A DNA stretch of 63,179 nt, the filler included, from Reclinomonas americana ATCC 50394 (lineage: Eukaryota), in the NCBI GenBank assembly GCA_048213135.1. It is 3 parts of 2 records of this genome, joined end to end, with 100 filler letters (N's around TTAATTAATTAA, not from the genome) between each part and the next. Parts side by side here need not be neighbours in the genome. Positions count along the whole stretch, not along the records: positions 27,323 to 57,815 come from PS015194.1; 2 more parts are not named here. One strand, 5' to 3'. The notes below the pieces were generated by a model. The model worked only from the letters and a program-made list of their open reading frames with translations, did no database searches and was not told the origin of the DNA. Shown here piece by piece: positions 30,866 through 55,184 of this stretch (position 1 is its first letter; every line of letters starts with the position of its first letter). The position numbers were made by a program, and so were the translations under genes.

Positions 30866-33800
30866 ATGAGTGCGCGCCATGGTGACGACGAGGACAAGGC
30901 GAGCGTGGAGTCGCTGTTGCGGCGATTGCAGGTGGTGATGTTGCGGTGTCCGGTGGATGCACGGACGGGGCAGTTTGAGCGCGCTCGCGATGCCTCGCTG
31001 CATGCGTTTCTGTTGCGCGTCTTGTCGGCGCGCTTGGCTGTCGCCTCCTCCTCCTCTTCGTCGTCGAGTGGAGGTGGACGCGTGCAACGCACAGGTGTGT
31101 GCGCGTGTCTGTGTGTGTGCGTGTGCGTGCAGCGATCTCACGTGTGTGTGAGCAGATGAGGCTGGATCCACTGACGCGTATGTGATGGGCGAGATCATCA
31201 AGAAGAGGCGTTGCGTTCGCCCTTGCTCACGTGCTGGGCGGCTGGTTGTGCTGACGGATTCGCTTCCACACGTGCAGTGGCACAGCAGGGACGACCGGCG
31301 GCCGCGGTGGAGTTCTCAGATGCATTTCGGCGACTGGTGGCGCTGCCGATTCTCAAGCGCAAAGGACCGCTGCTGCATGTGCTGTCCACGGTGGCGCGGT
31401 ACAATGCGGCCGTGCAGCATGGCGTTGAGGTGCGCAAGTGGAGAGTGCGTCTGTGCCCTTGCTGTGTTTTTCTTTGCTGACAATGCCGACAGCCGGCACA
31501 CACGGCGTTTGCGGATCTGCTGTTGAAGGACGTGCCGTCTGCTGCAGCTGGCTCCGGCAAGTTGTCGTCAGCGGACAAGACAGTGGCGGTAGCACCGGGC
31601 ACGCGAGGCGATGGCGTCGCATTACCGCCGCCGTCGTCGTCGTCGTCGTCGCCACCCGACGACTTTCTGCAGGGCTTTTCCGATTCTGAGTCGCCCGAGC
31701 ACGGTGCGTCCCGTGGTGCGACGAGGCGAGGGGTCATCGTGGCACTCACCTCGTGTTGCACAACACAGAGTCGGTGCGCGTGTCCGAGTTGGTACTGCTG
31801 CGCGATATGATGTTTGTGCTGCAAGGCATCGACGGACGGCGGATTCGTTTCGACAGCGGGACGAACGCGTATGAAGTCGATAGCGCCGTGTCCGTGCCGC
31901 CCACTTTCCACGCCATGATTCGGCGCATTGGCGAGCTGGGCTGGCTCTACCGAAGGATTTCGACATTTACGCATGCCGTCAGTGCCTCGGCGACCACGAC
32001 CGGACTCGTGGCGCAGAGCTTCTGCTCGACGGTGCAGCAAGAACTGGCCGCCTACTACCGCAGCATTGCCATTTTGGAGACGCAGATGAACTTTGAGGGT
32101 TGCGTCTCCAGTGTGCCGATGCAGCGTGCGAGTTGCGTGTGTGAAAACTGATCCTCTTTTGCTGTCTCTCTCTCTCAGCCGCCAAGGTGCGGTCGGGCGA
32201 GCAACCTGTACACTATCTGTCATTGCGAAAGTTGGTGGTGTGGATGGAGGAGCCGCTGCAGAGGCTGAAACTGATTGCCGTGTTGGTCGATGCGTGTGCG
32301 GAGCTGCATGGCGGCGAGCTGGCATCACGAGTCTACGAGTTCCACAAGCACGGCGATCCATTTGTACAGAGCTTTGTCGACAAGATCCTCCATCAGGTGT
32401 GTGGCGAGTGGGGAAAAAAAAGAGTGGCGAGTGCCCTGCAACTCATTTCCGTGCGTCAAGGTGTGCGTTCCGATTTTGAACATGATCCACCGATGGGTGT
32501 TCGAGGGCACGCTGGAGGATCCGTTTGACGAGTTCTTTGTGGCCTCCAACCCCAACGTAACACCCAATCGACTGTGGCACGACAAGTACTCTCTGCGCGA
32601 AAAGATGCGACCATCGTTCATTTCCGAGGCACTGGCACAAAAGGTGGCGTGACCCGCGGGACTCTGCTTCGTGGTGTCTCTCCCACACTCACTTCCAACA
32701 TGTGTTTGCCTGCCAGATCTTGTCCACGGGCAAGTCCATTAACTTTATTCGCCACTGCATGCGCGACTCGGAGTGGCTGATGGACTCGGGCGCCTCCACC
32801 ACGGCACAGCAGGGTGCGTAGACTGCCACCACTATCGGTGTCTTGTTGCCAACTGATCGCGCTCATTTGTGTTGATCAGCGCTGGCGGCTGGCGACTGGA
32901 CTGTGCTGGAGGGAGTCACTGATCAGGCTGCCGATATCACCAACCGGCACCTCATCACCACGATCTTCTCAAAGTACAAGATCGGCGCCCACATTCTCGC
33001 CCTCAAGCAGTACATGCTGTTGGGCCAGGGCGACTTTATCCAGTACCTGATGGACATTGTCGGGTGAGAACGTGGGAAAGAGGGCGAAAGGGAGATTTCG
33101 CGAGCTCACATCGGCACCGCCTCGCAGACCCGAGCTGAACAAACCGGCGAGCGCCGTGGAGCGACACAACCTGCCGGGCCTGCTCGAGTCAGCAATCCGA
33201 GGCTCCAATGCACAATTCGAGGACGAGAATGTGCTCGACCGGCTGGATGTGCGGCTGCTGCAGGTCAGTGTCCTCGGTTGTTCATCGCAGCTGCGATCGC
33301 GCACTCACCAAGTTGCGCAGGAATCCCCGGGCGACGACGGCTGGGCCGTGTTTTCGTTGGACTACAAGGTGGACGCTCCGATCGACACCATTCTGACCAC
33401 AGAGACGATGAACACGTATCTGCGCATCTTCAAGTACCTGTGGCGCTTCAAGCGCGCCGAACACTCGCTCAGTTCCATCTGGAGCCGGCACATGTCGCTG
33501 GCGCATATGCTGGTGCTGCCGCGTGACGCCGACCTTGCAGCGCTGCTGCATCGGTGCCGTCTGTTGTGCCATGAAATGGCCCACTTCACCTCCAATCTCG
33601 GCTACTTTGTCATGTTTGAGGTGTGGCGTGTGCGCACTCGACACGCTCTCGCCGACGCCACTTATCTCACTGCTGCTGTTTGCTGCGCAGGTGTTGGAAT
33701 GCTCGTGGGAGGAACTGCAGCGCTCCATGCGATCGGCACCGGATCTGGACGCCTTGCTAAAAGCGCACAACCAGTACTTGGATAGCATTGTGGAGCGCTC

Positions 33801-34254
33801 GCTGCTGGGCGACGACAAGGATGTGGAGGCGTTGCGGACGTTGATTACCCGGATTTTGGACCTGATCCTCCAGTTCAGATACGCCCAGGAGCGCGCGTAC
33901 ATGGACCTGGATGCGGAACTGAGTCGCCGGTCGGGCTCCGCCGGTCAGGAGAGCGGCAGTCGGTGGGGCAGCACCAAGACACTGGCAGAGGAACAGGCGG
34001 AGCAGGCGCAGTCGGTGAAACTTGTGCGCTCGATTGCACAGAACGCGCGCCTGACACGCGAAGCCTACTCGGATCTGCTGCACAATCTGATGGATCTCTT
34101 GTCACGCGTCAGCTCCCACGACGACATGCTGAAGTACCTCTCCTTCCGTTGCGTAGTCTGTCCGTCGTTGTCAACAAGCGCGGCGGCGTGTCTCACCCGA
34201 CGTGTTTGAGCAGGTCTCGACTTCAACGAGTACTACGACAATGGAGGCTCGTAG
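30866..34254 (+). CDS. TUBGCP3: Gamma-tubulin complex component 3 (Spc98/GCP3)
   Basis: LLRDMMFVLQGIDG, GELGWLY, GLVAQSFCS, HGDPFV, ALKQYMLLGQGDFIQYLMD, GWAVFSLDYKVDAP, RLDFNEYY. Confidence 0.9.
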
Positions 34255-34347
34255 GCGCGCTCTGTCCTTTCCCCGCTCCGCAGAGGTGGCAAAAAAGAAT
34301 GAAAAAAAGAAACTGTTTGTGATGGGAAAAAATGGCATGCTGCAAGT

Positions 34348-35514
34348 TTACGACATGTAGTTGAGGGGATCGAGTCTGTGTTGATGGGATGGTGAACGAG
34401 GCGCACACGCGTGTCGACACACACACACACACACACACATCGACAGACCTGTACATGTTGCCGTACTGCAATGTTGGAGTCTGGCCGCTCTCGCACTCGA
34501 CCACAGTGACAGCCATGGCTGTGGCAAAGCAGACGTGAGCCAAGCACACACACACGTTGCGCTCGTCGTCTCACGCAACTATCCTCATCCTGAATGTGGT
34601 ACGTCACCGTCACCACACTGGTGCGCAGGAAAAAGTTGAGGACCGCCGTCTGCGACGGCTGGTGGAAACGACCGGAGCACGCCACGCCATTGTAGCTCCA
34701 CAGCAACTGCGTGTCGCCGCCCTTGCCAATCGTCACCTTCATCTCGTAGCCAATCGTTGTGTTGTGCAGACCCTTGCCAAAAGACCAGTACCTACAAGAG
34801 GAAACGTGTCAACACGACGAGACACGAAAAGAAAACACCAAAAGCGGGTCGGCACGCAACAGGTACCGCGTGGTCGGCGATGTGTCCATCTTGCGCACTT
34901 CCTCAATCTGCGCCACCGAGATGGTCAGCAGTGAGAAGCGCAAAGGAGAAGGAGAAGGAGAAGCACAAGGCGCAACTGTCACAATGGAGTTGGTGGATCG
35001 CAAATGCTGCCACGTCCCACCTGATCACAACAACGATTGATGATGATCACGGCAAATGCACAGCAGTGTGATCACTCTCTCTCACCAATCTCGCGGAACT
35101 CCAAGTTGCGCTTCCACGGACCAAGCAGGAACGAGGGAAAGTCGGTGCCACTGCCACACACACGCACACAAGTGAGCATATATATGTGTGTGACTGTGTG
35201 TGTGTGTACCTCGAGGCCGGGAGTGAGGAGGCCGCAGGTGCAGCAGCCGACGAGCCTCCCGCACCTCCTGCTGCAGCAGTCGCCGAGGCACCTGCGCCCG
35301 TAGTGGTTGTTGCTGTTGTTGTGGATGTCGCAGTCGCAGTGGACGACGCATCGGCGGCGGTCTTGCCCTCGGAGAGTGATCGCGAGTGGGGCGCCACTGT
35401 GGAGGAGGCCGAGGGTGGTGCAGAGCCGGAGGCGGCCAGAAGCCGAGCAGAGCTGTTGAAGCGGCTGTTGCTGCCACCGGGAGCGCGGGAGGAGCCAGGG
35501 AACGCGGGGTCCAT
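34348..35514 (-). CDS. Uncharacterised protein (low-complexity N-terminus, beta-rich C-terminal domain)
   Basis: In-frame spliced exons: FLLGPWKRNLEFREIG..YWSFGKG..AVLNFFL..PTLQYGNMYRLDPLNYMS*. Confidence 0.7.
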
Positions 35515-35559
35515 GTGTGTGCTCTCTGCAATCGCTGTCACACAGGACACTGAGGAAGA

Positions 35560-37149
35560 ATGGACGGGTCTGTGAGTCTGCAGGCACTGGCGTTGACCAG
35601 TGTCTCTGGCATGGCCACTGGCATCGGTGTGTGTGCGTGTGAGCGAGTGTTGTCTCCTCTCTCCGTTGCTCATCTGTGATAATGTCGGCGGCCAAGGATC
35701 GTGTGCGGTGTTGGTGTTTGGTGAGGATGCGCATGGAGTGACCAGTGGACGCATGTTGGCCTTGGCGGCGGGTGTGATGCTGCAGGTGAGGCACACACAG
35801 TCGGCGTGTCATTCTCTGCCACTGATGGAGACATTGGGACAGGTGTCGGCCTTTGATCTGCTTCCCGAGGCCGCCGAGGTTTGCTCTTCTCCTCTCGCCT
35901 GCTCACCTCTTGTGCCGTTGTTGCTCACTGCACCTGTCAGGTCATTGGCTGGGCGGAGACGCTGGCTGGCGTTGCGATGATTCTGCGCTGCGCAATGCAT
36001 GCATTTGCATGGACAAGTGCTGACTTTCCCCCCTTGCGCACAGTTCGTTGTCGGCTGTCTGTTGTACTTTGTGCTGGAGCGACTGGTGCCGGAGCCGGAC
36101 TTGAAGGCGTTTGGAGCGCAGCTGTTGCCGACGCCGTCGGCCAGTGGCGCTGCGGTGTCGGCGTCGATGACGGAACGAGTTTTGTCTCTTCTTCTCCTCT
36201 CTCTGAAGCTACTGCGTGCTGATATCGCCTTGTCGACAGCGCCGTCTGCTGCGCACGGGTTTTATTGTGGCGCTCGTGCTGGCGGTTCACAACTTTCGTT
36301 GCGTGGTTGTTCGTGGCACTGTGTTGTGAGATGCCGACGACTGAGAAGGGTTGCGTGCGCAGCCGAGGGAATCGCCGTGTACATTAGTTGTCTCAAAGGT
36401 CTGTGCCGACCGACCCGCCTGATTGTGCGTCGCGCTGCGTGCACTAACCGTGGTGTACGTGTGAACAGGAATGCGCTTCGGCCTGACCATCATGGTTCGT
36501 GTGCTTTTCCTCGCCGGCACCCCTTTTTTCTCAACCAACGCGTCTGTGCTGCAGATTTCCATCATGCTACACAACATTCCAGGCGTGTTGCTCGCTGCGT
36601 TTCTGTTCTCTTCGAGATCGATTCTCATTGCGTGGTGTTGCAGAGGGCGTGGCTGTGGCCTGCAGTATCTACGCCGGCAGTGGCAAGTTTCGCGCGCACT
36701 ACTCCTCTTCAGCGCCACGCTAATTCTCACTGCCGTTGCAGCAAGAAGCAGGCCATGTTCTGGTCGATCCTCACTGGCGTAGCGGAGCCGGTGGGAGCGC
36801 TTCTATTTGCCCTGGTCTTCCAGTTCTTCATCTCGGAGCACATGGTGTCCTTTGTGCTGGCCGTGGGTACGAGCTCTCGCGCCGCCATGTGTCACTTGCG
36901 CGGAGCGCGTCACTCACTCCTCGCACAGTCGCCGGACTCATGTTCACCATCAGCCTCGCCGAGTTGATCCCCACCGCCAGTCGCTTCATCGGCACCACGG
37001 TGAGTTTGGTGATGATTTTTTTCACTCGCTCTAAAACCAAACCTGACAATCCTTGCACTCGCCGCCAGCCGCTGATTGGATTCACCATTATCGGCATGGC
37101 TCTCGTGTTCGCCTGCTCCCTCTTCTTCGATCTCATGGAGATCCATTGA
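35560..37149 (+). CDS. ZIP/ZupT-type metal transporter
   Basis: LALAAGVML, AVHNFPEGIAV, IMLHNIPEGVAVA, TGVAEPVGAL, AGLMFTISLAELIP. Confidence 0.9.
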
Positions 37150-37333
37150 GAAGATAGTTTCACTTTGTAGTAGAAAGCATTGAAAGAGACAGAGACGGTA
37201 CGGTTAATTCGATTGACATCGACGCACAAACACACACTCGCAACCGTGATGGCGAGAGCAGTGTAGATGAGAGGAAGAGCAGAGAGTAGGGGAAATGGAG
37301 AACGCCACGGACACAAACTGGTGCTCCGCCCCA

Positions 37334-38534
37334 CTACACCTTGTCGACGCTGCCGCCGACGGCTGCGCCGCCCCTCGGAGACTTGCGACTCGTCGCCTTT
37401 TGCATCGGTGACCTTGACGAGGAACCGGCGCCGCCTGCCGACGACAGAGTGACGGTGGAGCCAGCAGACGTCTTGTTGGCGGCGTTGCTCGATTTGGGAT
37501 CGTCGAGCAGCATGTCGTCGTCGGCCGGCAACAGAATCAGCGAGTGCAGAGCCAACACTGCGGCGAGCACGTGTAAGCGCCAGATACAACGGAGACGAGC
37601 TCTCCGTGGCCTCCCCACTCACCGCCTGCCATAATGATGACGACCGAGAACACGGTGCCGGCCAGCGAACTAAAGAAGAAGAACAGGGTCGACACTGCAC
37701 ATGTGCCATCGTCAGTCGACGCTCCAGAATGAAGAACACTTCGAAAACGCACCTGTGCCGAGCAGCATAAACAGGCGCTCACGTGGCAACCTGACATGCC
37801 CGATGATCAGCGGGCGGAGTCGGTAGGTGTTGTACACGTAGTACCAGGCGCCGCCGAGAATGCCCAGCGGAATCAACAAGACCGGGTCGAGGAGACTGCC
37901 GTGCAACAGCACTGTGAGAGAATGACACCGTGTCAAGACGAGGGCGGTGACACTACGCAACAGCGCAAACGCCACCGCTCCCGCCGTGATCAGCAGGTAG
38001 TTGAGAGCAAAGTACAACGAATTGCGTTTCAAGCGCGTCCACGCATCCCTGACGCTCACGGGGCGGCTGTCGACCCACACCCTCGTGAATTTCAGGGGCA
38101 GAGACAACACACACACAGCACAGCACAGCACAGCACAGCACAGCACCTCAACCGCGCCACGGCAATCATCGCCGGCCACGGCCGCATGCGCAGCGATCGC
38201 ACGAATCCACTCACGTACTCCAGCGCGTTGCGGAAAGCATTCGCCTCCTGCCAGCCGCGTGGCACATCAATGTCTCCTCCCCCTCCTCGCTCAGAGCATC
38301 ACGCTGCAACACGTACCTCTGGCACCGACAGCTCTGTCTCGCCGTCTTTCCGCGCCTCCTCCTCCTCCTCATCGTCAACAGCAGCTCCACCAGCAGCACC
38401 GGCTGCGGTTGCTGCTGAGGAAGGATCATTGGTCGCCAGTGGCTTGTTGTTGCCGCTGCCTGGCGCACCTCCGCCATACGCACTGCTGCCTCCACTCAAC
38501 AGGAGAGACGACTGCGCATCTTGATCGCCACCCT
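37334..38534 (-). CDS. PRA1 (prenylated Rab acceptor) family protein; 5' end uncertain
   Basis: RPVSVRDAWTRLKRNSLYFALNYLLI, hydrophobic hairpins, LALHSLIL. Confidence 0.75.
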
Positions 38535-38754: not shown

Positions 38755-41700
38755 TCGGATGGTTCGAAGAACGAACGACCTCGTCGCTTGTCGAAGAAGG
38801 CTGCCGACGCACTGGCGGCGGCCGCAGCAGCTGTGGAGCTGAGGAGAGCTGCTGCGATGAAGAAGAGTGGGGTGAAGTCGTCGACTGCCGCAGCCGAGTC
38901 AGGAGACAGCGACGGCGCCGAGGTCATGGAGATTGACGAGGACGCGGCAGAGGAGGCCGCTGCCTCTGGCGAGGAGAGCGCCGCCGCCGCCGCCGCCGCT
39001 GCACCTCCGCCGAAGAAGCAGAAGAGCAAGGCCGCTGCCGCACCCGCCACTGCGGCCAACAGCACCACAACTACCACCACCACTTCTACTACCGCAACCA
39101 CCGCCTCCTCATCATCGGCGAAGAAAAAGGACGACAAGACCGCCAAGCCTGTCAAGAAGGCGACAACGACGAGCACCACCGCAACACCGGCGGCTGCCAT
39201 ATCTCACAAGAAGAAGAAGGCACCCGCAGCAGCAACAGCGACAACAGCCGCCTCAGCCGGCGAGACTCCGGGGGAGGGGGAGGACGGTGTTGTCGCAGTG
39301 GCTGAGGAGAGCGGTGGTGGTCCGGCGACAGCGGCGAGTGAGGAGCAGTCGATGCTGGTGGAACCTCCGCCGCCTGCGCCAGTGGTGATTCCGTACGCAG
39401 ACGCCGACATGTTTGAAGACGATGACATGGCGGCAGTGAGTGGCGGCACCTATGGCGCGGATGGTGAGAATGGCGATTATCCGGGAGAGCGCGATGCTGG
39501 TGCGTACGGAGCAGAGGATGACTACGACTATTACGACAGCGACGGCGAGTTTGTGGGTGATGGACGACCGCCGAAGAAGCGAATGCGACCCGGCTCGCCG
39601 TCGACCGGTGGCCCGTTCGCCCACAAGGATCGTTCGTTGCCGAATCCACGTCGGTACCCGCTGGACGAACAGACGTTCTTGGCTCGTCTGTTCCGCTCGC
39701 TGGAGGGCACACCGAGTGCCATTACGCGTCCGCCGCGGATGGGCTACAAGGATCTCGACATCCACACCCTCTACTACGAGATCATGGCCAATGGTGGATA
39801 CAGGGAGTCGTGCAAACGTGACGGAGTGTGGGTGATCACGTGGCGAAAGATGCGCAACTACCGGCCGTCCATCACCAATGCCTCAGTTCGCCTCAAGGGC
39901 TACTACGAAAAGTACTTGATGCAACTGGAGGCCGAGGATCTGGGCAGGATTCACGTGGTACCGTCCACATCGTCGTTTTCGTCGACGGGTGGCGCGAGCA
40001 GCGCTCCTGCACGTTGCGTTTTTTTGTGTGTATCGCCTCGTCTTTTGTATTGTCTCCCCTTTGTCTCACACACTCGCAGAGGTGACGGGCGCAGGCAAGC
40101 GTCGCCGGGAGGACGACGACGAAGCCGGAGGCTTCTCTGGAGGCGACTCTGACAGTGAGCGCGCTCTGCCGCCAGTACCCGCACCAGTACCTTCGTCTGC
40201 TGTGGTGTCGGCCGCAGAGCTGGAGAGGCAGAAAAAGGAGGAGGCGCGTGCCAAGAAGCGACGAGAGCGCATCAAGCGGGAGTTGGTGGAGGGTGCGTGC
40301 TACAAGAGTGACGTTTGTGTGCGTGTGCGTGTTTTCTTTTGTCAGAAAGTCATTCTGTTGCGTGCAGATGAGCCATTGCGGCTTGAATGGGTGCCGTATC
40401 GTGTGGTACGGTGTCGAATCTTCAAGCATCACTTGGACGACTTGTCGCAGGCGTACTTCCCGAGCGAGAAAGTGTGGGACATGAATTCGTTGTCGCGCTT
40501 GGAGGATTTGTTTAGGTGTGTCGCGGGATCAGAATTTGGGATGGTACTATTTGTGTGCAGCGTTCCTCACCCACTTGCCTACCATTCACCTGTGTCAGTT
40601 TTGCGGACGATCGCTTGTCACTACGAGTGCGCGATCCGCAGTTTAATAGTGGTTTGTCTCTCTTGTCGCTGCTGCTTGCTGCGTACCGCTGTGTTCACGC
40701 ATGCTGTGGTGTTGTTCATTAGCGACACTAGAGGGGGAAAAGGACGAGACGATTGTGGACATTCTCGGCGACGAGAGCGAAATCACGCTTGTGAACGACG
40801 GTGCGCCCCACCCGTGAGGAGAAGAATGACAGCAATGTCAACAAAGCATGTATATTGATTGTGAGTTTTTGTGCAGGTCACCGGATACGTGATCAAGCCA
40901 TGGACATGGCGGTGGACGACGACATGGGTGCCCCTGCAGCAGCATCATCGCTGTCGTCGCCCGGCTGGAGGCGAACAGGCGAAACGAAACCACTACGCAG
41001 TGCCGCCGACGTGCAGCGCGAACTCAATCGCAGAATAGAGGTGTGAATGTGGTGCCGGATCTCAGTCGCTTGTTTGTCACCCACTCACACATTTTGGTGT
41101 CGGCAGGTTCGCGAGGCACGGATTGTGGTGCACGACTGCCCTACTGGCCGCCAGTTCTTCCGCTCTATGCTTCCGTTCTCGGGCTCGCGGTTGTATCAGT
41201 TTGGTGCGGCCGTGTGCGTGGAGACCACGCGCGAGGTGCTGCGCGGGTCGAGTCGCGAACCGGCCAGCGATGTTGGTCAGTGAGCTTGTTTTCGCGAGTG
41301 GGTATCTTGGTGAAGTGACTCTCATGTGCGTGGAGCAGTGGAGGTTGGCGACTTGTGTGCCATGGTGCACACGCCGGCGGTGGTGCTGGCGCTTGGCCCC
41401 ACACCTCTGTCACGGTCTGGTGAACCGCGTCTGCCCGAACACTCGATTGTGTTTGGCTGCGTCTTCCCCGACGACTTGCATCTCTTCCGCGACCTCACCG
41501 ATGCCGACCAGCTGATTGTTGCGTGCGACGACTCGCCGTGCATGCCGTCGCTGCCAGTGCTGACAGTTGCCTTTCTTTTCAGTTCGAGGAGGCGCCTGAC
41601 TTGCCACAACCACCTGCCAAGGCAACGCGACCGGGAGTTGGAGCGGCTGCTGCAGGCGCGGGGCAATCCTCTGCACTCGCTTCCTCCTCCTCCTCCTCCT

Positions 41701-43172: not shown

Positions 43173-45539
43173 ATGTCTCTTGCCTCGCACATGCAGACGC
43201 ACCTGCGCGAGTGGTCGCGTCAGTTGCGTGCCAGTGGGCACGGGGTGACTGCTGCGGCAGTGGGCGCGGGTGCCAGTGCACTGGTCGGTGCCTGGCTCTG
43301 GCATCGTCATCGCACGCAGCAGCTGGCGCGACAGCAGCGTGGAGAGCAGCTCAGTGTGGTGGCGAACAAGCACGACCCGCAGCAGCAGCATGCATCGTCG
43401 AGGTGAGACGCACGTGAAAAATGAGAATGAACAGGGAATGTATGACTGACTCGTGTGTGTGCGTGTGCTCGTGTGTGTGTCCCCTCCAGTGGTCGGCGAC
43501 TGGAGAACGCGCGGTTCTATGCACAGCTGCGGCGACTGTTGAAGATTGTGCTGCCGGGGTGGCGATCGAAAGAGGCGCTTTTGCTCGGATTGCACACGGG
43601 GTTCCTGGTCACACGCACCTTCTTGTCGATCATCAAGGCCAAGCTTGATGGTGTGTGTGTGTGTGTTGGGTGCTCGGGCGGCGACTGCTGCATTTGGGTT
43701 GCCATTCACCATTCAAATACCTGCTTCTTTCGGGCTGGTGGTCGCAGGTGTGCTGGTGAAGACCGTGGTTGGTGCTGAGCCGCGCGAGTTTGTCAAGTTC
43801 CTCCTGCTGTGGTGTGCACTCGGCATTCCGGCCTCCTTCACCAATGCCATGATTGTGTTCCTGGAGAAGAAGGCGCGCACAACGCTGCGACAACGAATGG
43901 TTTCCTTTTGTCAATGCTGATGGTTTCGTTGTTGCAGGTGGCGCTGGCCTTCCGCACGCGTCTCATGAACCACGCCAGCGATCTGTACATGAAGGACGAG
44001 GCGTACTATCGCACCGTCAACCTCGACGCACGCATCTCTAATCCCGACCAGCTCATTTGCGAGGTTCGTTTGTAGCGGAGATGTGGCACAAAAAGATTCT
44101 AATCTCGTGTCTCCTCCATGCAGGATGTGAACCGATGGTGCCTGCAGCTGGCGCATCTGCACTCGCAGCTGTCCAAGCCGATTCTCGACGTGATTCTCAT
44201 GACCGCGCAGCTGGTCTACATGGGCAAGGAGGGTGCGTGGATGAATCACAAGAAAATGGATGAGTGTCGTTCGGTATGTTCGCTCACATGTGCATTGTGT
44301 ATGCATGCAGCCGCCGGCTACCGGCAAGTGGCCGTGACGTCGTCGATTGCGGCATTTGTAGTGGCTCTCACGGCCCGCATTCTGAAGTGGGCGCGCCCGC
44401 CGTTTGGTCGCCTGGTCGCCGAGCAAGCGAGGGTGAGTGAGCGAGCGCATGCATCTTGCTCACGTGTCGCTGCTCATCTCACTCTTCTTCGCGGCAGCTG
44501 GAGGGCGACTTGCGCTATCGACACAGTCGCCTGATCACCAACGCCGAGGAGATCTCGTTCTACGGTGGCGCCACGGTGGAGAAGGGATTCTTGAATCGCG
44601 CCTACATGGCGCTGGTGCGTCAGGTCAACCTGATTTACCGCAAGCGCGCCGCGTACTCTACCGTCGAGGATCTGTGCATGAAGTACTTGTGGAGCGCCAG
44701 TGGCTTCACCATCATGGCACTGCCGGCGTTTATGGCGCGCGCCGACTCGCGTGTCGCGCAGTCGGGCACCGCTGGTTTGCTGATCACGTCTTCTCCCTTT
44801 TTGTACTTTCCATGCCCCCCACTCACGTGTCCACGCAGGCCGCACGGAGATCTTCATCACTGCGCGCTCGCTGCTCATCAGCTCCTCCGATGCCATTGAG
44901 CGCATCCTGTCGGCGCTCAAAGAGGTGTCGGAGCTCGCCGGCTACACCGATCGCGTCTCGGAGATGCTCACTGTGTTTGAGGACGTGGCCAAGGGTCGCT
45001 ACGAGAAGGCGCAATTGCGTGGCACCGACATGTCCGAGTTCCCCAAGCCGGAGGTTGTCGACGGGCAGGACTTCATTCAGTTGGATCGCGTTGCGTCTGC
45101 TCGCCCCTCTCTTTCTGTTTTCTCCCGCCTGCTCACCCGACCCGACGGACCAGGTGCCGATTGTGTCGCCGAACGGAGACGTGCTGGTCAAGTCCATGTC
45201 GTTCACCATGCGCCGCGGCATGCACCTGCTCATCACCGGGCCGAACGGGTGCGGCAAGAGCTCCATGTTCCGCATCATCGGAGGCTTGTGGCCTGTGCTG
45301 GGCGGCCGTCTGGTGAAGCCGGCGCGCCAGGACGTGTTTTACGTACCGCAACGGCCGTACCTGAGGTGTGTGCACCGTCAAGCACCAGAGTATACACGCA
45401 GCTGTCATCCTAATCCTTTGCTGTTTGTAGTCTGGGCAACCTGCGCGATCAAGTCATCTACCCCGACTCGATGGAGGTCATGAAGGCCAAGGGCTTCACG
45501 GACGCCGACTTGATGCGCATTCTGGACACGGTGAGTGCG

Positions 45540-45590
<51 letters not shown>

Positions 45591-46275
45591 ATGTTGTGTG
45601 GCGGAGATCGCGTGGCTAATGTGGAGGTGTTCATGTGCAGGTCAACCTGCAGTACATTGTGGAGCGCGAGGGTGGCTGGGACGCGAACAATAACTGGCAG
45701 GATGTGTTCTCGGGTGGCGAGAAGCAGCGCATGGGCATGGCGCGCCTGTTCTACCACCACCCGTTGCGTTACTCGACAAGCCTGAGGAGTAGATTTTTCT
45801 TCCCGTCACTCATCACCCACTCTCCCAACAGCAAATTCGCCATTCTTGACGAGTGCACGAGTGCCGTGTCGATGGATGTGGAGGGCAAGATCTACGATGT
45901 ACGTGGTGGTGGTGGTGGTGATTGTTGGCAACAATGCTTCACCACGCTCACTCACTTTGTTTGTGTACGATGATGCAGGCCGCCAAGGATCTCGGCATCA
46001 CTCTGATGAGTGTGAGCCACCGCCCGAGTCTGTGGCGCTACCACAACTGGATTCTGCAATTTGACGGTGACGGCGGCTGGACGTTCTCGCCCCTGAATGC
46101 CGAAGAGCGCATGGGTCTGAAGGACGAGAAGGTGAAGCTGGAGGCGCAGTTGCAGGGCATTCCGAAGAGCGTCAAGCGGCTGGAGCACATTTGCCACGAG
46201 CTGGGCGAGGATAGTGTGGTTCTTCGCGATGTGCAGCATCTGGCCGACGGTACAGGCGAGGAGAGCAGCAAGTGA
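43173..46275 (+). CDS. Peroxisomal ABC transporter, subfamily D
   Basis: [75 protein letters not shown]. Confidence 0.95.
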
Positions 46276-46405: not shown

Positions 46406-47835
46406 TCATCGGACAGTAGACTGTGAAGCCGATCGAAATATAGGTCGACCGCCGCCAGCCTCGAGATCGCGCACTCCCGCATCGTCGGCCTCGGTAGGTC
46501 GCTGACGGTTGACGGAATCCGTTTCGCTTTCGCGCGGCGTACGACTCAGCGGCTCCTCTGAGTTGGTGCTGAGCGGTCCGGGGTAGAAGCTGCAATAGGC
46601 CGCCACCTGCACCGACACCGCTCAGTGATTGCAGTGGAGATGAAGCGACAAAGGAGGAAGATGAAGGGACGCAACTCCACTGCCGATACCGATCAGTGAG
46701 CCGGCAATGACATCGTCCTGCACAACAGGAACGGCAATGAGCGCAACGACGATTACCAACAGGCAGCACGAATGTACGCAACCGGGTGATGAAAGTAATT
46801 GGCGATGCGACTAAACGACACCACCATGGCATACACCAGCGGCGTGCACGTCAGCGCCACCGTCCACAGCCGCCGGCGATGCGGCTGCAGCGACTTGGTC
46901 TTGCCGGCCAAGTACAAAAAGAGGCACACCATGGTGGCCCACGAGACCGACGAGTGACCCGAGGGAAAACTGAGGTGCGCCTCGCGACACGAGTCGCCAC
47001 CGAGCTTGGCGCAGTAGGCGTTGTAGTTGGGTCGCAGACGGCCGACAATGACCTTGGTCACCGAGGTCACTGCGCCAGCCAGCACCAGCGCAGTCACGTG
47101 CGCCAACACCGCATGCACCGAGTCGATGACGCGGCGTCCACGCGACACCACGAATATTTGCATGGCCACCACGAGAANNNNNNNNNNNNNNNNNNNNNNN
47201 NNNNNNNNNNNNNNNNNNNNNNNNNNNNNNNNNNNNNNNNNNNNNNNNNNNNNNNNNNNNNNNNNNNNNNNNNNNNNNNNNNNNNNNNNNNNNNNNNNNN
47301 NNNNNNNNNNNNNNNNNNNNNNNNNNNNNNNNNNNNNNNNNNNNNNNNNNNNNNNNNNNNNNNNNNNNNNNNNNNNNNNNNNNNNNNNNNNNNNNNNNNN
47401 NNNNNNNNNNNNNNNNNNNNNNNNNNNNNNNNNNNNNNNNNNNNNNNNNNNNNNNNNNNNNNNNNNNNNNNNNNNNNNNNNNNNNNNNNNNNNNNNNNNN
47501 NNNNNNNNNNNNNNNNNNNNNNNNNNNNNNNNNNNNNNNNNNNNNNNNNNNNNNNNNNNNNNNNNNNNNNNNNNNNNNNNNNNNNNNNNNNNNNNNNNNN
47601 NNNNNNNNNNNNNNNNNNNNNNNNNNNNNNNNNNNNNNNNNNNNNNNNNNNGCACACAAGTAAGAGAGAGTGCGGCAAATGCAATGCAAGTGCGCGAGTT
47701 CCGTTTCTTGTTGCACACACACACGCACCAAGAACGCGCGCCCACGGCCACCTCTGTGACAAGAAACGCAATGGCAAGCGCGACTAATGTCACTGCATCG
47801 CCGGCATAGGCCCGCAAATGCACTCGCCAACTCAT
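46406..47835 (-). CDS. PAP2-family lipid phosphate phosphatase
   Basis: KVIVGRLRP, SFPSGHSS, SRIANYFHHPDDVIAG. Confidence 0.9.
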
Positions 47836-48036: not shown

Positions 48037-51000
48037 ATGAGTGGTGAGCGCGCACGCACGCACACACAGACGCACTCACAGACTGTGTGCTCACTCATTG
48101 AACACAGACACGGTCACTGATGAGACTGTGATTGCGGTGGTGCAAGTCGAGGAGTCAGTGGTGCCCGCAGTCGTGGCCACTGATGACGCAGGTGCTGTTG
48201 CCATTGCCTCTGTTGAGGAGGAAAGTGTGGTGCTTGGATCGTCGCCTCTGCAAGTAGTGTCAGACGCACTGCCGGTGAGTGATGCGGCTGCTGCTGTGAC
48301 TGTGGCTGCTCCTGTGGTGGCTGCTGCTGCTGCTGGAGGCTCTGCGGAGGCGTCTCCGGTGGCGGAGGGCAAGCAGCGGAGAGGGACGCGGTTCTCGGGA
48401 GCGGCGCGTCGTGAGTTTGCCAATGGAGATGTGTATGATGGAGAGTGGAAGGAGGGCCGTATGCATGGCTTTGGCACGTACTCGTTCAAGTCGGGCAACA
48501 CGTATCGAGGTGGCGTTGCTGTGCTTGCCTGCGTTCTCTGTGTCTCTTTCCCTGTGTCGCTCATGCGTGTTGGCGGTGGTAGGGCAATTCGCTGATGGTG
48601 TGGAGAATGGCACGGGCGTGTGGTCGGCCTGGAATGGGTCGTCGTACGAGGGCGAGTGGCAGAATGGTGAGGCCGTGCATGCGAGTGTAGCAGCGGTGCG
48701 AGAGTTGTGCTCACCCCCGAGATGGCGCAGGCAAGAAGCACGGCAAGGGTCGGTTCCGCTTCCCCGATGGCGAGGTTCGATATTTCTTCTGTTTCCCCTC
48801 CCATCATGTTCAGTGTATTCACGTGTGAGCGCAGGAGTACGATGGCGAGTGGCTCAATGGCACCATGACGGGCAAGGGGCAGTATCGGTACAGGAACGGT
48901 GACGTGTACACGGGCGATTTGGTGGATTCGAGACGGCACGGCCGCGGCCAGTATGTGGAAGTGGTGTCCCTCGATGTGCTGCCGCTGCCGACCGGCGAGA
49001 ACCAACCCATGCCGGCCAACGTGTACGACGGGCAGTGGCAGAACGGGCAAAAGGTATCGTCGTTTTGTGTGACATGCAGTGTGGCTCCGGGTCACTGAAT
49101 CAATCTACGTCGCATCGCGCAGCATGGTCAAGGCTGCATGGTGTACGCCAACGGCGACGTGTATGATGGCCACTGGGAAGAGGTGGGCTTCCGTTCTTCC
49201 AGGTCATTCTCTGTCGCGTGTGTTTGTGTTCATCGAAAGGGTGTGTGCAGGGTCGCATGCATGGCGAGGGCATCTACACGTTTGCTGGTGGCTGCGGCGT
49301 GTACCAGGGTGCATTCTTCCGTGGAGTGCGTCACGGTGCCGGCACGTTCACCAACACGGTGACTGGCGAGTCGTATGTCGGCGACTGGGATTTCGGCAGC
49401 CGGCAGGTGTGTGGTGAACTGCCTTTCTCTCTCTCGCGGCCTTGCTCTTCCTCACTTGCCGCTCTCTGCGCAGGGTTACGGCAACGAGGTGGACAAGCTC
49501 GGCAACCATTTTGTGGGTCAGTTCCACGGCGGACGCCGCACCGAAGGCGAGTGCACGTACGCCAGCGGCGACGTGTACTGTGGTCAGTGGGGTGGCGAGA
49601 ATGTGAGGCAAGGTGAGACTGGCTGTGCTGGCGCGAGTCCTGCTCTCTCTCTCTGTGTGTGTGTGTGTGTGTGTGTGCGTATGCTCACTGTGTGGCGTCG
49701 ATGCTACAGGGAGCGGTGAATGCAAGCGCGCGAACGGGGACGTGTACACTGGCCAGTGGCTCAACGACCAAGAACACGGACAAGGCTCGCTCGTGCAGGC
49801 CGACGGCCTGAAGTACACTGGTATTGCGTGCGATGCGCTGCCATTGTGTTGCGTCATGTTGCTCACGCGCGCTGCTTCACAGGCATGCTGAAGCACGGGC
49901 TGTTTGATGGGCATGGCGAGTGGGAGGGGCCTGACGGCAGTTCGTACATTGGTGAGTGGCGATCGGGGAAGAAGAACGGCCGTGGTATCCTGATCAATCC
50001 CGACGGCGATGAATACGAGGGTGCGTCGGTGGTGGCTGCCGCCGCGAGTCCACTCTCTGGCGTCTCACTCCTCTCTCTATGTGTACAGGAATGTGGGAGC
50101 AAGACGAGATGGTGGAGGGCGAGTTCCGTTCGTTTGACGGCTCGGTGCACTATTCCGGTGCGTCGTGTGTCTCACACAGACAAAAGCAAAACGAGAGATG
50201 TTTGTTGTTTCCTCACTGACACTGTGCGCAGGCCAATGGAAGGATGGCAAGTGGAACGGCGCGGGGAGATGGGAGAACAATACCGGCGACAACTATGAGG
50301 GTGCGTACGACTCCCCGGCTCTGTTGTCAGACTGAGTCTCGCGCCTCACTTTCCGTGCAGGTGAATACCGCAACGGGAAGCGACACGGGCGTGGAGTTGT
50401 GCAAACACACGAAGGGTTGACATACGACGGCGAGTGGCAAGACGACGTGGAGCATGGTCGTGGCGTGATGGAGCTGAAGAATGGCACCAAGTACGAAGGC
50501 GACTTTGAGCGTGGCGAGTTTCACGGGCACGGCATTCTGTACAGTTGCGTTTGCAGTCGTCGGGCGTGTCTGCGCACAAGCTGACACGGTCCCCCCCTCG
50601 ACGCAGTTGCGTACACGGGCGAAAAGTACGAGGGGCGTTTCGCAAGCGGCAAGAAGGAGGGCAGCGGCAAGCTGACCAACAAGCATGGTGCGTTTGTTTT
50701 TGTTTTTCTTCCATGCTGGCGAGCGTGGATGTCGCAACTCACTGTCTGACTGGTGATTAGGCGATGTGTACACGGGCACGTGGGTGGACGGCGTACTGGA
50801 CGGCGAGGCCATTTTGCTGGAGGCCTCCACATGTCGTACGTTTCGCCTGACGTTTGTCCAAGGCAACATTCGCGATCGCGTGCCGACCGAGGGGTTTGAG
50901 CTGGAGGATCGCTTCACTCTGCGACTGGCCGACGGATCTCGAGTCATTCGCACGGATGCCGGGTTGACGGTGGAGAAGGGCTCAAAGGCGATCACCGTGC

Positions 51001-51861
51001 CGGCTGTGCGCTACACGGGTGCGTGCGTGGGTGCCGCCAGGCCGCAGTTTGTGGAAAAGTCGGGCACTCTGATCAAACTCGGACACAAGAAGGGTGCGCG
51101 TTGTCGCTGTCATCGTGCTTTCCTCCCATCACACACGCCACTCATTTTCAATCATCCTCATGCAGGACCGTTTGGAGGCGAGAGCTGGAAGACACGGCAC
51201 TTCATGTTGCAGGGCGACACGGTGTTCTACCACTCGGCGGAACGAGTTGCGTGTGTGTGCGCAGGAAGTGACGCAAAGTTGAAGGGACATGCGCTCACAC
51301 ATATGTGCACCTGCAGGCACCACCCATTGCGAGCATCCCGCTTCTTCCCTCTGGTTGGTGCCGTCTGGTGGAGCCCGACGAACCGCGACGAAGTGATGCG
51401 TTTGAGAGCAAGGTGCGAAGGACGGCGGAAGAGTGCAGTCGACCGTCGGGGGTGGTCGGGCGGGTGAGTGGGATGCCACTCGCTGCGTGCAGGCCTGGTG
51501 GTTGCTGACACTGCCGCGACGCACAGGAACACTGTCTCGCACTCTACTGCGAAAAGTACAGCCGCAAGGGAGCAGAGCCAGTGTCGCGAACGTTTTACGC
51601 CTCTGCGGCCACCGCCGATGAACGCATCGAGTGGGTGGAGGCCATCAACAACAACCTCAACGTTGTGCAGGTGCACTTTTTTTGCGTGTGAATGCATTTT
51701 TCTCCTTATTCGTCAGGTCGTCCCTCACCATTCGGGTTTGCTCTCAGGACCGCGATGCCGAGCAACGGCTAGCCACCAGCTTGCAGGCTGCTGGCATTAA
51801 CATGGCACAGCTGGAGCTGGAACCGTGTGCGCTGCTGGACGCCCTGTATGCTATTCGCTAG
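48037..51861 (+). CDS. MORN-repeat protein with C-terminal PH domain
   Basis: Many repeats of the [17 protein letters not shown] type; then [27 protein letters not shown]. Confidence 0.88.
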
Positions 51862-51980
51862 CGTTCTGCTTCTCCGCCCCCGCATGCACGCCACCTACCA
51901 CGCGGTGGTGGTGGTCGAGTAAAATGTTGACACTGTGTGAAACATGCATTATGTGCACAACCTATTCCGAAGCGCGAGCC

Positions 51981-53069
51981 TCATCGCCGCGAGCGACGAC
52001 TCGGCTGTGTTCGTTGTTGTTGTTGCTGCTGCTGTTGTTGTTGTTGCTGCTGCCGTCCCTCGTACACACCAGCATAGTAGCCCGAGTAATAGTACGAGAG
52101 GAGCAGATTGTGCAGATCGGCATCGGTGCCAGGCAACGGTGGCGGTGGCATGGGCGACGCAGCAGCCGCAGCAGTCGCAGTCGCAGCAGCGGCACGAGTC
52201 GGCGGCGGAGCGATGCGATACCCGTCCTGGTAATAGACTGGCGTTGGCGCCACCTCCTCCTCCTCCTCTCCCTCCTCCTCGTCTTCTTCTTCACCATCCT
52301 CGTCTTCCTCCTCGTCATCGTACTCATCCGCCGCCGCCGCCGATGCTTCTCCCACTCCGCCACCATACGACCACGCAGCGTACGGCTGCATTTGCTGCTG
52401 CTGTTGCTGCTGTTGCTGGTAGTACGCAGCCCACGCAGCAGCCGTCGGATCCGAACTCCTGCGCCACCGCCAGCCACACGTGAGTCCAACGAAGGATAAG
52501 AGGCCAGCACGACAAACGCAACGCATAGTACGCGGCCGTGTACGGATCATACTGCTGTTGCTGCTGCCCGTACCCATACTGCGCATAGTACGCTGCAGTA
52601 GCAGCAGCAGCAGCGGTGCTGTCCACTGCATCCTCGGATGCAGTCTTCGCCTTTGACTTCTTACTCTTCTTCGCCTTGTCCTTCTTTTTCCTCTTCTCTG
52701 CTCCCTCGCCCTCCTCCTCGCCCTCCTTCTTGCTGGACTTGTGCTTGCCATGCTTGTCCTTCTTCTCCTTGCGCTCCTTCTTTGACTTCTTCTTCTTGTG
52801 CTTCTTCTCGTCCTCCTCCTCCTCCTCCTCTTCACTGCGCGGTGGCACACGATGCCGCGCACTGTACTCACTCTGCGCCTGCTCCCACGCACGCAGCAGT
52901 GCCGAGTCGTCCCACAAATCGCTGTTCTGCTGCGTGGACACTCACAATAAGACCCTTGTGTGTGTGTGTGAGAAAGAGAGAGTGTGTGAGCGAGCGTGTA
53001 GGACGCAACGCGCAGCTCGGCAATGGTGTACGTCACACCAGGCTCCACGTGTGTCACCGGCGTCGCCAT
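51981..53069 (-). CDS. SMN: Survival motor neuron (SMN) homolog
   Basis: N-terminal SDLWDDSALLRAW (Gemin2-binding); C-terminal PMPPPP..LHNLLLSYYYSGYYAGVYEG (YG box). Confidence 0.8.
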   Translation of the reverse strand: MATPVTHVEPGVTYTIAELRVASYTLAHTLSLSHTHTQGSYCECPRSRTAICGTTRHCCVRGSRRRVSTVRGIVCHRAVKRRRRRRTRRSTRRRSQRRSARRRRTSMASTSPARRRARRRAREQRRGKRRTRRRRVRSQRRRLHPRMQWTAPLLLLLLQRTMRSMGTGSSNSSMIRTRPRTMRCVCRAGLLSFVGLTCGWRWRRSSDPTAAAWAAYYQQQQQQQQQMQPYAAWSYGGGVGEASAAAADEYDDEEEDEDGEEEDEEEGEEEEEVAPTPVYYQDGYRIAPPPTRAAAATATAAAAASPMPPPPLPGTDADLHNLLLSYYYSGYYAGVYEGRQQQQQQQQQQQQQRTQPSRRSRR

Positions 53070-53126
53070 TGGAGAGACAGAGAGACAAACACGTGCAGGA
53101 CACAGCGCAAAACCGTTCGTTTGTCA

Positions 53127-55184
53127 ATGAAGCAGCGAGCGGTGCCCTCGCCTTCCTCTGCAGCAGCTGCGACTGCTGCGGCGGCGGCGACTGCTGCAGC
53201 GACTGCTTCTGCGAATGGAGACAGTGGCGCATTGCCTGGAACGCCCTCTTCGTCGAGTGTGTCGGCGACGGCAATGAGTCCGGCGGTGGAGGGTTTGATG
53301 AGCGCAGAGGGCGTGGATGCGCGTGGTGGCTCGCCTTTGCATGGGAAAGGCCGCTTGTTGTCGGCGGCCAGCATCAGTGCACGTGGCGAGCACGGGGACG
53401 GCGGTGGGCATCATAATCACGGCCACTTGTCGGTGTGTGGGCTGAGTGGGCGGGCGATGATGCTGGCCACGCTGTGCTTGATTGCGCTGGGAGAGAACTT
53501 GAGGTGCGTGCGCACGGAAGTGAGAGAAAGAGACCAGACTGTGAGAGATGCGCTGAGAGACTGTCGATCGCAGTTACTATCTGCCGGCGCCGTTCATTGG
53601 GCCTGAGATGATCTCGCGAGGTCTCACGCAGCTGCAAGTTGGTTTTGTCGATGCCAGTCCGTCGATTGCGTCGCTGCTGGCGACGCCGTTTGTGGCGCGC
53701 GTTCTGCGGGTGCCGGGGCGAGCGCGGATGCTGTTGTATGTGGGTCTGATGTTGCAGATTGCGGCGTACTCGGCGTTCAGTTTCATGGGCCACGTGGGCG
53801 ACGGCGTGGGATTCTTGATTGGTTCGCTGACGCTGCAGTCGGCGGTCGGTGTGGCAAGCGCGTGTACGCAGACCACGAGTCTGACGCTGGCGGCGCGCGC
53901 GTATCCGAGTCAGACGGGGTGGGCGCGAGGTGTGGTGGAAACCGCCGTCGGCGTCGGCTTTTTCCTCGGCCCCGGTCAGTGCAATGTCTCCACGTGTGTT
54001 CTCGCCTGGCGACTGACTGACTTTCTTCCGCGCGCAGTGGTCGGCGGCTTGCTGTACTCGGCCAGCTCGTTTGCCTTCCCGTTTGTGGTGATGACGGTGT
54101 TCATGTGCATCTGCCTGGCGTCCTTTGAGTGCGTGCAGCGGAGAGTACGACTGCGCGACGAAGGCGATGAGTCCACACTGGATGCTGGCGGCGACGAGAT
54201 GGACGAGGAGAATGGGGGCGGAGATCCGGAGGATGTGCGCGAATATCGCGGCGAGAAACCGCTGTGGAGAATTCTGTTCGGGCGCTGGTGGGTGCTGATT
54301 GGCACCATGGCCGTCTACTGCAGCTCGGTAATGTTTGGCCTGCTGTCGGCCACACTCGCACCGGCCCTCGACGGCACTCTCGGCAGCGTGGGTGTGGCCA
54401 TTGCTCTTGGTCTCACCAATGTGACGTACGTTGGCTCGTCGCTCTTTGCCGGCTGGGTTAGCGACGGCCAGGCGTGGTCCCGCCGATTGACGCTGCTGGT
54501 CGGTTTGTTGGCGTGCGGCCTGGGCACACTGCTGCTCGGCCCGGCCTCCACCATGCTGGCCGATCGGCTCCCGGACGAGGAGGGGCCGCCGCTGTCGGCG
54601 TTGATGACAGTGTTGACCAGTGTGGTGCTGATGGGACTCGGTGGTGGAGTTGCGTTGTTGTGCCGATGTCGTGAGTTGAAGAATGATTACTGAAGGCGTG
54701 GCAGTTTGCATACGTGGCGCCATTCCCCGAGATCACTGCGTCGCCGGACATTGGCGAACGGCGGGCGCACTTGGCCAGCGCCCTGGCCTTTGCAGCCATG
54801 GAGGCCGGGTCGTTGAGTGGCGCCATTGGAGGATCGGAGTTGGTGGAATTGGTGCGTGTGTGCATGCCGGCATTGTCACCCTGCTGGTTTCGTGCTACTC
54901 GATTGTTTTGTTCATTATTTCCTCGTTTTGTGCGCACCTAGCTGGGATTCTCCAAGGCCACGCTATGGGTCGGCGGCTGCATCACTTTTATTTCGGTGCT
55001 GAGCATCGTCTACGCGGTGCAGTCGTCGTCGTCGTCGTCATCAACATCTTCCGGTGACGCCATGGCCACCTCGGGTGCGCTCATCCTGCGCAGCACAACG
55101 CAGGCGTCGGCGCTGTCGACGAACCACCAGCGATTAGGGTCGTCGACAGTAATCCAGATGCAGGAGATTAAATCGGCTATGTAA
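53127..55184 (+). CDS. MFS transporter (SLC18B1-like)
   Basis: Multiple TM helices, GVVETAVGVGFFLGPVVGGLLY, AGWVSD. Confidence 0.8.

Follow-up and report, generated by a model that had tools for sequence, protein, structure and literature searches.

A GTTGCGT class of predicted 5′ splice sites, mostly at exon ends without a final G, in Reclinomonas americana

What marks the start of an intron when the exon before it does not end in G? This question is raised by a stretch of 63,179 nucleotides from the genome of Reclinomonas americana ATCC 50394 (GenBank assembly GCA_048213135.1), which consists of three parts of two records joined by filler and is hereafter called the window; all positions count along it. 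An initial annotation of the window had noticed that many introns seem to begin with GTTGCGT, and had proposed that this heptamer is a second class of donor (5′ splice site) in which the usual motif is displaced by one base. The window is gene-dense eukaryotic sequence of ~58% GC with N gaps, and its introns are short (median 66‒69 nt). After reading the window in full, we delimited 25 gene regions by eye and modelled their introns. The results support GTTGCGT as a second, routinely used donor class that is tied to the loss of the exon-final G.

GTTGCGT as a class of intron starts

GTTGCGT occurs 54 times in the window, 24 times on the plus and 30 times on the minus strand, where Markov models of orders 1 to 4 predict 15.2, 12.2, 13.9, and 20.2 copies. 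Among 7-mers, only microsatellites and a gap-filler word are more over-represented (z = 10.7 for GTTGCGT at order 3). Its copies are strongly oriented: the gene regions contain 52 in sense and one in antisense direction, and the 13 genes whose strand is fixed by Pfam domains contain 28 and none, respectively. Near-miss words show no comparable strand bias (GTTGCGA 4:10, GTTGCGG 5:9, CTTGCGT 5:5).

Introns were predicted with a self-trained gene model based on coding bias, acceptor, branch point, and length, in which donors were scored only on their GT or GC dinucleotide, avoiding circularity. This donor-blind model picked GTTGCGT at 36 of 184 introns. In a second pass, which gave 188 introns, 41 of the 54 GTTGCGT copies were used as donors, while control words were used at most once (GTTGCGG 0/15, CTTGCGT 0/11, GTTGTGT 0/15, GTTGCGA 1/15); neither pass scored the exon bases at the donor. 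Removal of 21 doubtful introns by eye left a curated set of 167, and the uncurated set gives the same outcome (41 exact GTTGCGT and 66 shifted donors among 188). An unsupervised two-class mixture fitted to positions +1 to +8 of the donor-blind calls gained 187 in log-likelihood and separated GT-G-(C/A/T)-G-T (~70%) from GT-T-G-C-G-T (~30%). GTTGCGT opens 39 of the 167 curated introns, and independent positional frequencies, the comparison that the initial annotation had set as its own refutation test, predict about one, so the class withstands this test. The GTTGCGT class is very probably a real set of donors, and its share of the introns, its tie to exon ends other than G, and the ordinary 3′ signals described below were, like the class itself, computed directly on the DNA.

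For comparison, donors with G at +5 were grouped as class A (103 curated introns), and donors with T at +3, G at +6, and no G at +5 as class B (50 introns, about three in ten). Class B comprises 39 GTTGCGT, three GTTGCGC, two GTTGAGT, two GTTTCGT, and four single variants, and is present in 21 of the 25 modelled genes, mixed with class A inside the same genes. Class A donors follow an exon-final G in 96 of 103 cases, as had been stated for ordinary donors, and carry A at −2 (45%), G at +3 (75%), and T at +6 (65%), with C43/A30/T27/G3 at +4. In class B, G precedes the cut at only six of 50 sites, where composition alone would give 17.2, and all of the 14 curated donors that belong to neither class follow G. 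Consequently, the two classes divide the exon ends between them: class B accounts for 44 of 51 donors after a non-G base and for six of 116 after G. The donor-blind calls agree, with −1G at 90 of 96 ordinary and five of 48 shifted donors. Since 6/116 is near the 3.5% predicted from sequence space alone, −1G seems to be neither required by class B nor harmful to it. The initial annotation had described the base before GTTGCGT as mostly C or A, which is true of 11 of the 12 plus-strand sites that it listed but not of the class; over all 39 GTTGCGT donors the base is C in 33%, A in 28%, T in 26%, and G in 13%, and the rule is rather that it is not G.

The proposed displacement by one base is borne out in its anchor. 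G at +6 is found in 58 of 64 curated donors without +5G vs nine of 103 with it, and the pair +6G+7T in 49 of 64 vs two of 103, so that the G-U anchor stands at +6/+7 instead of +5/+6. The displacement is not a plain slip of the consensus, as shifted forms of the GTGAGT and GTGTGT type are nearly absent: GAG, GCG, and GTG cores occur in a ratio of 24:33:18 in ordinary donors vs 3:43:0 in shifted ones. GTTGAGT, which had also been reported, does provide two class-B donors but is not enriched (12 copies seen, 8‒10 expected), and two of its 12 copies are model donors. Within class B, +4 is G in 46 of 50 and A in none, and +5 is C in 46 and A in three. The class carries 7.8 bits of information at +3 to +8 and 0.26 bits in the exon, vs 3.5 and 1.57 bits, respectively, in ordinary donors. 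Eight further donors lack +5G, have +6G, and have a base other than T at +3 (32644, 48510, 49054, and 49821 on the plus strand; 776, 19075, 19975, and 27438 on the minus strand). All of them follow an exon-final G, and they are possibly read in a bulged register or are simply weak AG|GT sites.

The position of the cut was examined at seven class-B junctions in the ABCD transporter (38 homologues), PAP2 phosphatase (87), and gamma-tubulin complex component 3 (GCP3; 2) genes by scoring all in-frame GT/GC-AG alternatives within 45 nt. The GTTGCGT junction ranked first at six of the seven, and the ordinary junctions of the same genes did so at 15 of 19; retaining the intron shifts the frame or introduces a stop at six of the seven. 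If the true cut lay elsewhere, or if the sites were artefacts of the model, the chief candidate would be a GC-AG intron that starts three bases further on (GTT/GCGT), whose GC is in frame and is the best competing donor at all seven junctions. However, this cut adds one residue inside conserved motifs at six of them, and the residue is missing from 38 of 38 homologues at 45090, 36 of 38 at 45763, 82 of 87 at 46782, 79 of 87 at 46675, and both GCP3 homologues at 34148 and 31210. At 32099, where the exon ends in G and the junction lies in a variable loop, the two homologues are one residue longer, GTTGCGT ranks third, and the GC alternative is better by 3.4 bits. The GC site has +5G in only 12 of 43 cases, and the reading frame rules out cutting behind the first G at 33 of 50 sites, those at which the following exon begins with another base. 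The remaining 43 class-B junctions are taken from the gene model, and all junctions are predictions from DNA. A cut elsewhere seems very improbable.

At their 3′ ends, the introns of the two classes are alike. A branch-point core of CTCAC or CTGAC, at a median of 19‒20 nt from the 3′ end, is common to both (p = 0.99 for its score and 0.69 for its distance), and no difference was seen in branch point, length, phase, or acceptor (p = 0.38‒0.99); the GC content is also shared. Since the 3′ signals, length, and phase match those of class A, class-B introns appear to be ordinary U2-type introns with a different start signal. A rigid intron-side motif without exon preference is typical of U12-type introns and introners, and class B is also rigid on the intron side and indifferent to the exon. 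It might represent U12-type introns whose 5′ signal has been rewritten, or introners (transposon-made introns) that spread recently and brought the motif along from their donor element. The hallmarks of U12-type introns are an RTATCC 5′ motif and a CCTTAAC-like branch point, and neither was found in class-B introns. The bodies of class-B introns are no more alike than others (mean local score 13.5 vs 13.1‒13.4), no target-site duplication accompanies them, and a terminal inverted match occurs in one of 50. Both forms of this explanation are largely refuted here.

Pairing with U1 and the reading of the shifted donor

The 5′ arm of the standard U1 small nuclear RNA (snRNA) pairs poorly with class B. 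Its mean duplex energy is −1.3 kcal/mol with class B vs −7.0 kcal/mol with class A, and −4 kcal/mol is reached by two of 50 class-B duplexes vs 90% of those of class A. When class B is aligned one base downstream, +1G takes the place of −1G, U lies opposite C8, and the majority bases of the two classes agree at U1 positions 9, 7, 6, 5, 4, and 3. This geometry is that of the human shifted register (PMC4856993). The constancy of +5C and +4G in class B, compared with the mixed +4 position of class A, points to a partner with G5 and C6. We compared modelled U1 arms at the 44 class-B sites with a non-G exon end. Four modelled arms that keep C8 all pair better without the extra U, by 1.4‒2.2 kcal/mol, so that pairing alone cannot explain the 44:7 excess of class B at non-G ends. 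A preference for the real sites, of 1.9‒3.6 kcal/mol, is seen with the three A8 arms alone, and since these pair class A less well than the standard arm does (−3.1 to −5.7 kcal/mol), the energies point to two U1s. The −2 base, for which C is expected opposite U1 G11, is as in the background (p = 0.89).

The best explanation, to which we assign a probability of about 0.5, is that GTTGCGT is a U2-type donor class read one base downstream by a dedicated U1 variant with A8. It would constitute a second 5′ splice site class of the major spliceosome for which exon sequence is not needed, and would serve the exon ends without the final G that ordinary donors nearly always have. The predicted variant would carry a 5′ arm of approximately ACGCAAC, in which the standard positions 5, 6, and 8 are changed to G, C, and A, and this arm would pair with the whole heptamer, displaced downstream by one base relative to the usual register, with +1G of the intron bound to U1 C9 in the usual place of −1G. 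A U1 in the ordinary register would handle the remaining introns. At the hand-off, U6 would either tolerate a G-U anchor that lies at +6/+7, one base more distant from the cleavage site than usual, or dispense with the anchor. Normally, five bases separate the cut from the G paired with U6 C42, and one exception, with four, has been reported (PMC11162779). We infer that the introns are spliced as modelled, and likewise the U1 variant, its register, and the U6 step. Of the agents suggested by the initial annotation for a routinely used shifted register, a variant snRNA fits best, and the human-type shift of standard U1 fits worst. A stronger form of the proposal is that the genome uses two parallel codes for intron starts, in which a second U1, retuned at positions 5, 6, and 8, reads GUUGCGU one base out of register for non-G exon ends and, at roughly three introns in ten, six rather than five bases lie between the cut and the G paired with U6; this form we put forward only tentatively, leaning slightly against it.

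Besides the junction at 32099, several points weigh against the U1 variant. A at −1, which would face U1 U10, is found at 17 of the 44 non-G sites, a marginal excess (p = 0.06). The variants of class B mirror those of class A (GTTTCG- three, GTTGAG- three, and GTTGCGC three of 50), as is also expected from a single partner read in two registers. The duplex energies leave out pseudouridines, U1C, Luc7, U5, and U6. An Rfam scan of the window gave no snRNA at the gathering score, and the variant U1 is thus predicted only; the 24 matches in the window up to an E-value of 5 were all below the gathering scores, and none was spliceosomal. U1-like arms preceded by AT were also absent from the window. 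When viral contigs were screened for stray copies of U1 genes, the control pattern matched 18 loci, none with an Rfam match, so that this screen was without power; the pattern of the variant gave 118 raw pattern matches. In addition, a review ascribes the shape of the exon-independent donor class to U6, not U1 (PMC11732430), and standard U1 is retained in Thecamonas, Micromonas, and yeasts despite donors with +4C or +4U (bioRxiv 10.1101/2022.06.08.495308).

Both classes might instead be read by a single retuned U1 that keeps C8 (arm approximately ACGCAC or ACGUAC), with class B shifted by one base or with one U bulged, if a U1C- or Luc7-like protein makes G opposite C9 near-obligatory and thereby forces the shift at non-G ends. 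Arms with G5C6 or G5 indeed pair well with classes A and B (−10.1 and −7.0 kcal/mol for G5C6; −8.6 and −5.2 kcal/mol for G5), and the agreement of the majority bases described above fits a common reader. G lies opposite C9 in 160 of 167 curated donors (116 with −1G and 44 non-G class-B sites), all eight shifted-looking donors without +3T have −1G, and a U1 with G5 has been reported for Mastigamoeba (bioRxiv 10.1101/2022.06.08.495308). Nevertheless, RNA pairing prefers the site minus the extra U by 2.2 kcal/mol, opposite to the observed 44:7, so that the protein rule has to be postulated, and +4A, a mismatch to G5, is present in 30 of 103 ordinary donors. We consider a single retuned U1 unlikely. 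A further explanation places the definition of these sites at the U6 step, where U6 would pair with +6G/+7U in the +1 register with one base looped out, or where a U6 paralogue or other small RNA with an ACGCA box would read the motif, like U6atac for minor introns. The exon-independent NN//GURAG class of animals and plants is ascribed to U6 pairing (PMC11732430), and a class of this type is nearly replaced by NN//GUUGCGU here (44 vs 7); a one-base change of the U6 register in the opposite direction has suppressor evidence at STAT3 (PMC11162779). Against this, the standard ACAGA box cannot account for +5C in 46 of 50 sites, Entamoeba altered its U1 but kept the ACAGA box (bioRxiv 10.1101/2022.06.08.495308), and the sites must first be found by something, whereas standard U1 barely pairs with them. 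Definition at the U6 step thus appears improbable.

The remaining possibility is that standard U1 itself reads class B in the +1 shifted or the +2/+3 bulged register, as at rare human sites, only more frequently. By the number of base pairs with the standard arm, class B gets 5.9 shifted and 6.0 bulged vs 3.8 in register, and both registers are documented in human (PMC4856993). However, the helix is interrupted at +2 and +5, with the mean energy given above, and the A that would be favoured at +4 and +5 is seen in 0/50 and 3/50, respectively. GTTAAGT is absent from the window. A bulge at +2/+3 would moreover leave −1G in place, which disagrees with its depletion in class B. Reading by standard U1 is highly improbable.

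Class-B introns in their genes

All 12 plus-strand sites listed in the initial annotation read GTTGCGT and were also chosen by the donor-blind model. They open introns in the ankyrin-PH gene (10775..10893), the family-3 G-protein-coupled receptor (GPCR) gene (13846..13911; Pfam), the GCP3 gene (31210..31277, 32099..32178, and, in its conserved C-terminal motif, 34148..34213), the ZIP-like transporter gene (36298..36362), the ARID gene (40013..40079), the ABCD transporter gene (45090..45153 and, in the conserved ATPase domain, 45763..45831), the MORN-repeat/PH gene (50544..50606 and 51246..51316), and the MFS transporter gene (54649..54704). The donor-blind model placed further plus-strand class-B introns in the GPCR gene (GTTGCGT after an exon-final G, 15251..15319; GTTGAGT, 16047..16108), the ZIP-like gene (GTTGCGA, 35971..36043; GTTTTGT, 36179..36239; GTTTCGC, 36687..36741), the ARID gene (GTTGCGT, 41518..41582), and an unnamed gene (GTTTCGT, 56394..56459).

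The minus-strand sites that had been noted in IPK, GPATCH11, NTF2-like, PAP2, SMN-like, and methyltransferase genes are likewise present in the gene model. GTTGCGT introns on this strand lie in the inositol polyphosphate kinase (IPK; Pfam) gene (489..558, 1002..1076, and 1401..1474), the G-patch/DUF4187 gene (9913..9969; Pfam), a large kinase gene (21394..21477 after G, 22626..22695, 22868..22936, 23590..23644, 26203..26281, and 26408..26470), a gene fragment between gaps (27583..27652, after G), an unnamed gene (34519..34579 and 34792..34860), the PRA1 gene (37896..37961; Pfam), the NTF2-like gene, whose label is taken from the initial annotation (42798..42870), the PAP2 gene (46607..46675 and, after G, 46718..46782), the SMN-like gene (52459..52522 and 52930..53009; Pfam), another unnamed gene (57216..57288), and the methyltransferase gene (62027..62082). 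Variants on this strand are GTTTCGT in the kinase gene (25631..25692), GTTGCGC in the first unnamed gene (34908..34976), and GTTGAGT and GTTGCGC in the methyltransferase gene (60330..60387 and 61816..61875). Five minus-strand introns were obtained in the second pass only, namely GTTGCGT and GTTGCGC introns in the sirtuin gene (6016..6092 and 6232..6313; Pfam SIR2) and GTTGCGT introns in the kinase gene (17057..17146 and 22446..22524) and the NTF2-like gene (43001..43063). A GTTGAGG variant in the PRA1 gene (38067..38152, minus strand) is doubtful, as the donor-blind model chose 38146 instead. Three probable class-B donors recognized by eye were not counted: those at 28917..28923 (+) and 18611..18617 (−), whose introns enter N gaps, and a GTTGAGT at 62937..62943 (−) in the first long methyltransferase intron, where the model chose another site.

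Some GTTGCGT copies are not donors. At 19014 (−), 36350 (+), and 40357 (+), the word lies 9‒11 bases before the acceptor AG of three introns. In the MORN gene, the class-B intron at 50544 is flanked by a direct repeat (50544‒50612, plus strand), and GTTGCGT is formed anew at 50606 by the acceptor AG together with the following exon. GC-AG introns account for two of the 167 curated introns, 36583 (+) and 43873 (+), each following an exon-final AG, and the junction at 43873 ranks first against the ABCD homologues.

The age of the ABCD introns was explored with 135 introns roughly mapped in metagenome ABCD loci (L001‒L074; 74 of 80 loci used, six weak matches excluded). None of these lies at any of the window's 12 ABCD intron positions, and none begins with GTTGCG. 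Relative to the class-B intron at 45763, an intron lies three bases upstream in eleven of the loci, including L030, L031, L032, and L038, and two bases upstream in L015 and L018; these near pairs represent either independent gains or sliding. Two rough automatic intron calls, from two of the same loci, have t|GTTGAGT, which resembles a shifted donor following a base other than G in another organism.

Pfam searches of single exons identified IPK, SIR2, G-patch, ankyrin, 7tm_3, GCP C-terminal, PRA1, ARID, ABC, PAP2, SMN, MFS, and methyltransferase domains, some of them below the curated cut-off. The ZIP-like transporter gave no Pfam match on single exons and is presumably a member of that family, as its motif suggests; a protein search with one of its exons had no matches, and its four class-B junctions are therefore without a homology test. 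The best protein match to the window is 80% over a single ABCD exon. GCP3 has two matches (best 48%), and PAP2 matches range from 32 to 53%. No similar stretch was found in other genomes. Among named ABCD homologues, that of Vermamoeba is closest (61% over 640 residues), and in a quick tree, which carries a long-branch warning, the ABCD sequence of the window forms a long branch next to 17 rows, Vermamoeba and Vannella among them; this gives a weak hint of Amoebozoa.

Several other features of the window were recorded. The kinase gene (16380‒27820, minus strand) is a very large, intron-rich model with a protein kinase domain and a dual-specificity-phosphatase-like stretch at its end, both labelled by eye. 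The methyltransferase gene contains two unusually long introns (60600‒61200 and 62100‒62940, minus strand), where the gene model is unreliable, and one of them holds a near-duplicate of ~100 bases seen by eye. A 12-base TTAA-type word with stops in all frames lies between two 44-N runs at 27267‒27278 and again at 57860‒57871; it is an assembly linker, so the pieces on either side may not be neighbours. Between 3350 and 5024 on the plus strand, seven dispersed copies of an element begin at a GTGAGA donor-like word. The element forms a single 17-pair hairpin with a variable loop and both-sided changes at two pairs, and has no Rfam match; the copies may be an intron-hosted array of structured RNAs within a repeated host gene.

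Relation to known donor systems

Human 5′ splice sites are reportedly read by U1 in shifted and bulged registers, according to Roca and Krainer in 2009 and Roca in 2012. Class B resembles these sites in that it looks like the consensus enlarged by one base between +2 and +5 and has its G-U anchor at +6/+7. In human, all non-canonical registers together make up 1.5% of sites (PMC11162779), with 54 sites for the bulge at +2/+3 and 36 for the bulge at +3 (PMC4856993, Table 3). In the window, by contrast, the class opens 50 of 167 modelled introns, consists largely of one near-fixed word, and pairs poorly with standard U1. The GTTGCGT class behaves as a shifted-register site, yet lacks the feature of standard-U1 pairing. 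In Amoebozoa, possibly the supergroup of the window, U1 arms retuned to the donor are known from Entamoeba, where ACAAAC faces GUUUGU, and from Mastigamoeba, with ACGUAC, and Physarum has a standard and a modified U1 together (bioRxiv 10.1101/2022.06.08.495308). As in Entamoeba and Mastigamoeba, a rigid and atypical donor is poorly read by standard U1 here, and +4C is shared with Mastigamoeba. In those lineages, however, positions +3/+4 are altered within the usual register and the changed donor has become the consensus, whereas in the window two classes stand side by side, set apart by the final base of the exon and displaced from each other by one nucleotide.

Donors generally fall into two major classes, AG//GUNNN and NN//GURAG (PMC11732430). 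The window resembles this system in having an exon-dependent and an exon-independent class that compensate each other, but its exon-independent class lacks +5G and reads NN//GUUGCGU. The tandem donor of STAT3 offers a further parallel, as the distance between its cut and the G bound by U6 C42 is unusual (PMC11162779). There, the distance is shortened to four at one human site; here, it would be lengthened to six in about three in ten introns. U12-type introns share the rigid 5′ motif without exon preference, and differ from class B in the RTATCC motif and the U12-type branch point, while the 3′ signals and phases of class B are those of ordinary introns. We found no report of a GTTGCG or GUUGCG donor class in the literature, although subscription papers and supplements could hold one; in a survey of 263 species (PMC11347168), the words "shifted" and "register" do not appear in the main text, and its supplements may hold splice-site tables.

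The presence of G at +5 and its distance to the cut have been treated as nearly fixed, since U6 is thought to measure five bases from this G. Introns with the anchor at +6, about 30% of those modelled, offer a natural experiment for deciding which of U1, U6, or a protein fixes the register and the cleavage site. In practice, standard gene finders can be expected to mis-model a large share of the introns of Reclinomonas americana. If the proposal is true, the donors of one genome can be shared out between two modes of recognition, with many sites rewritten one by one, and this split would bear on the co-evolution of snRNAs and their targets.

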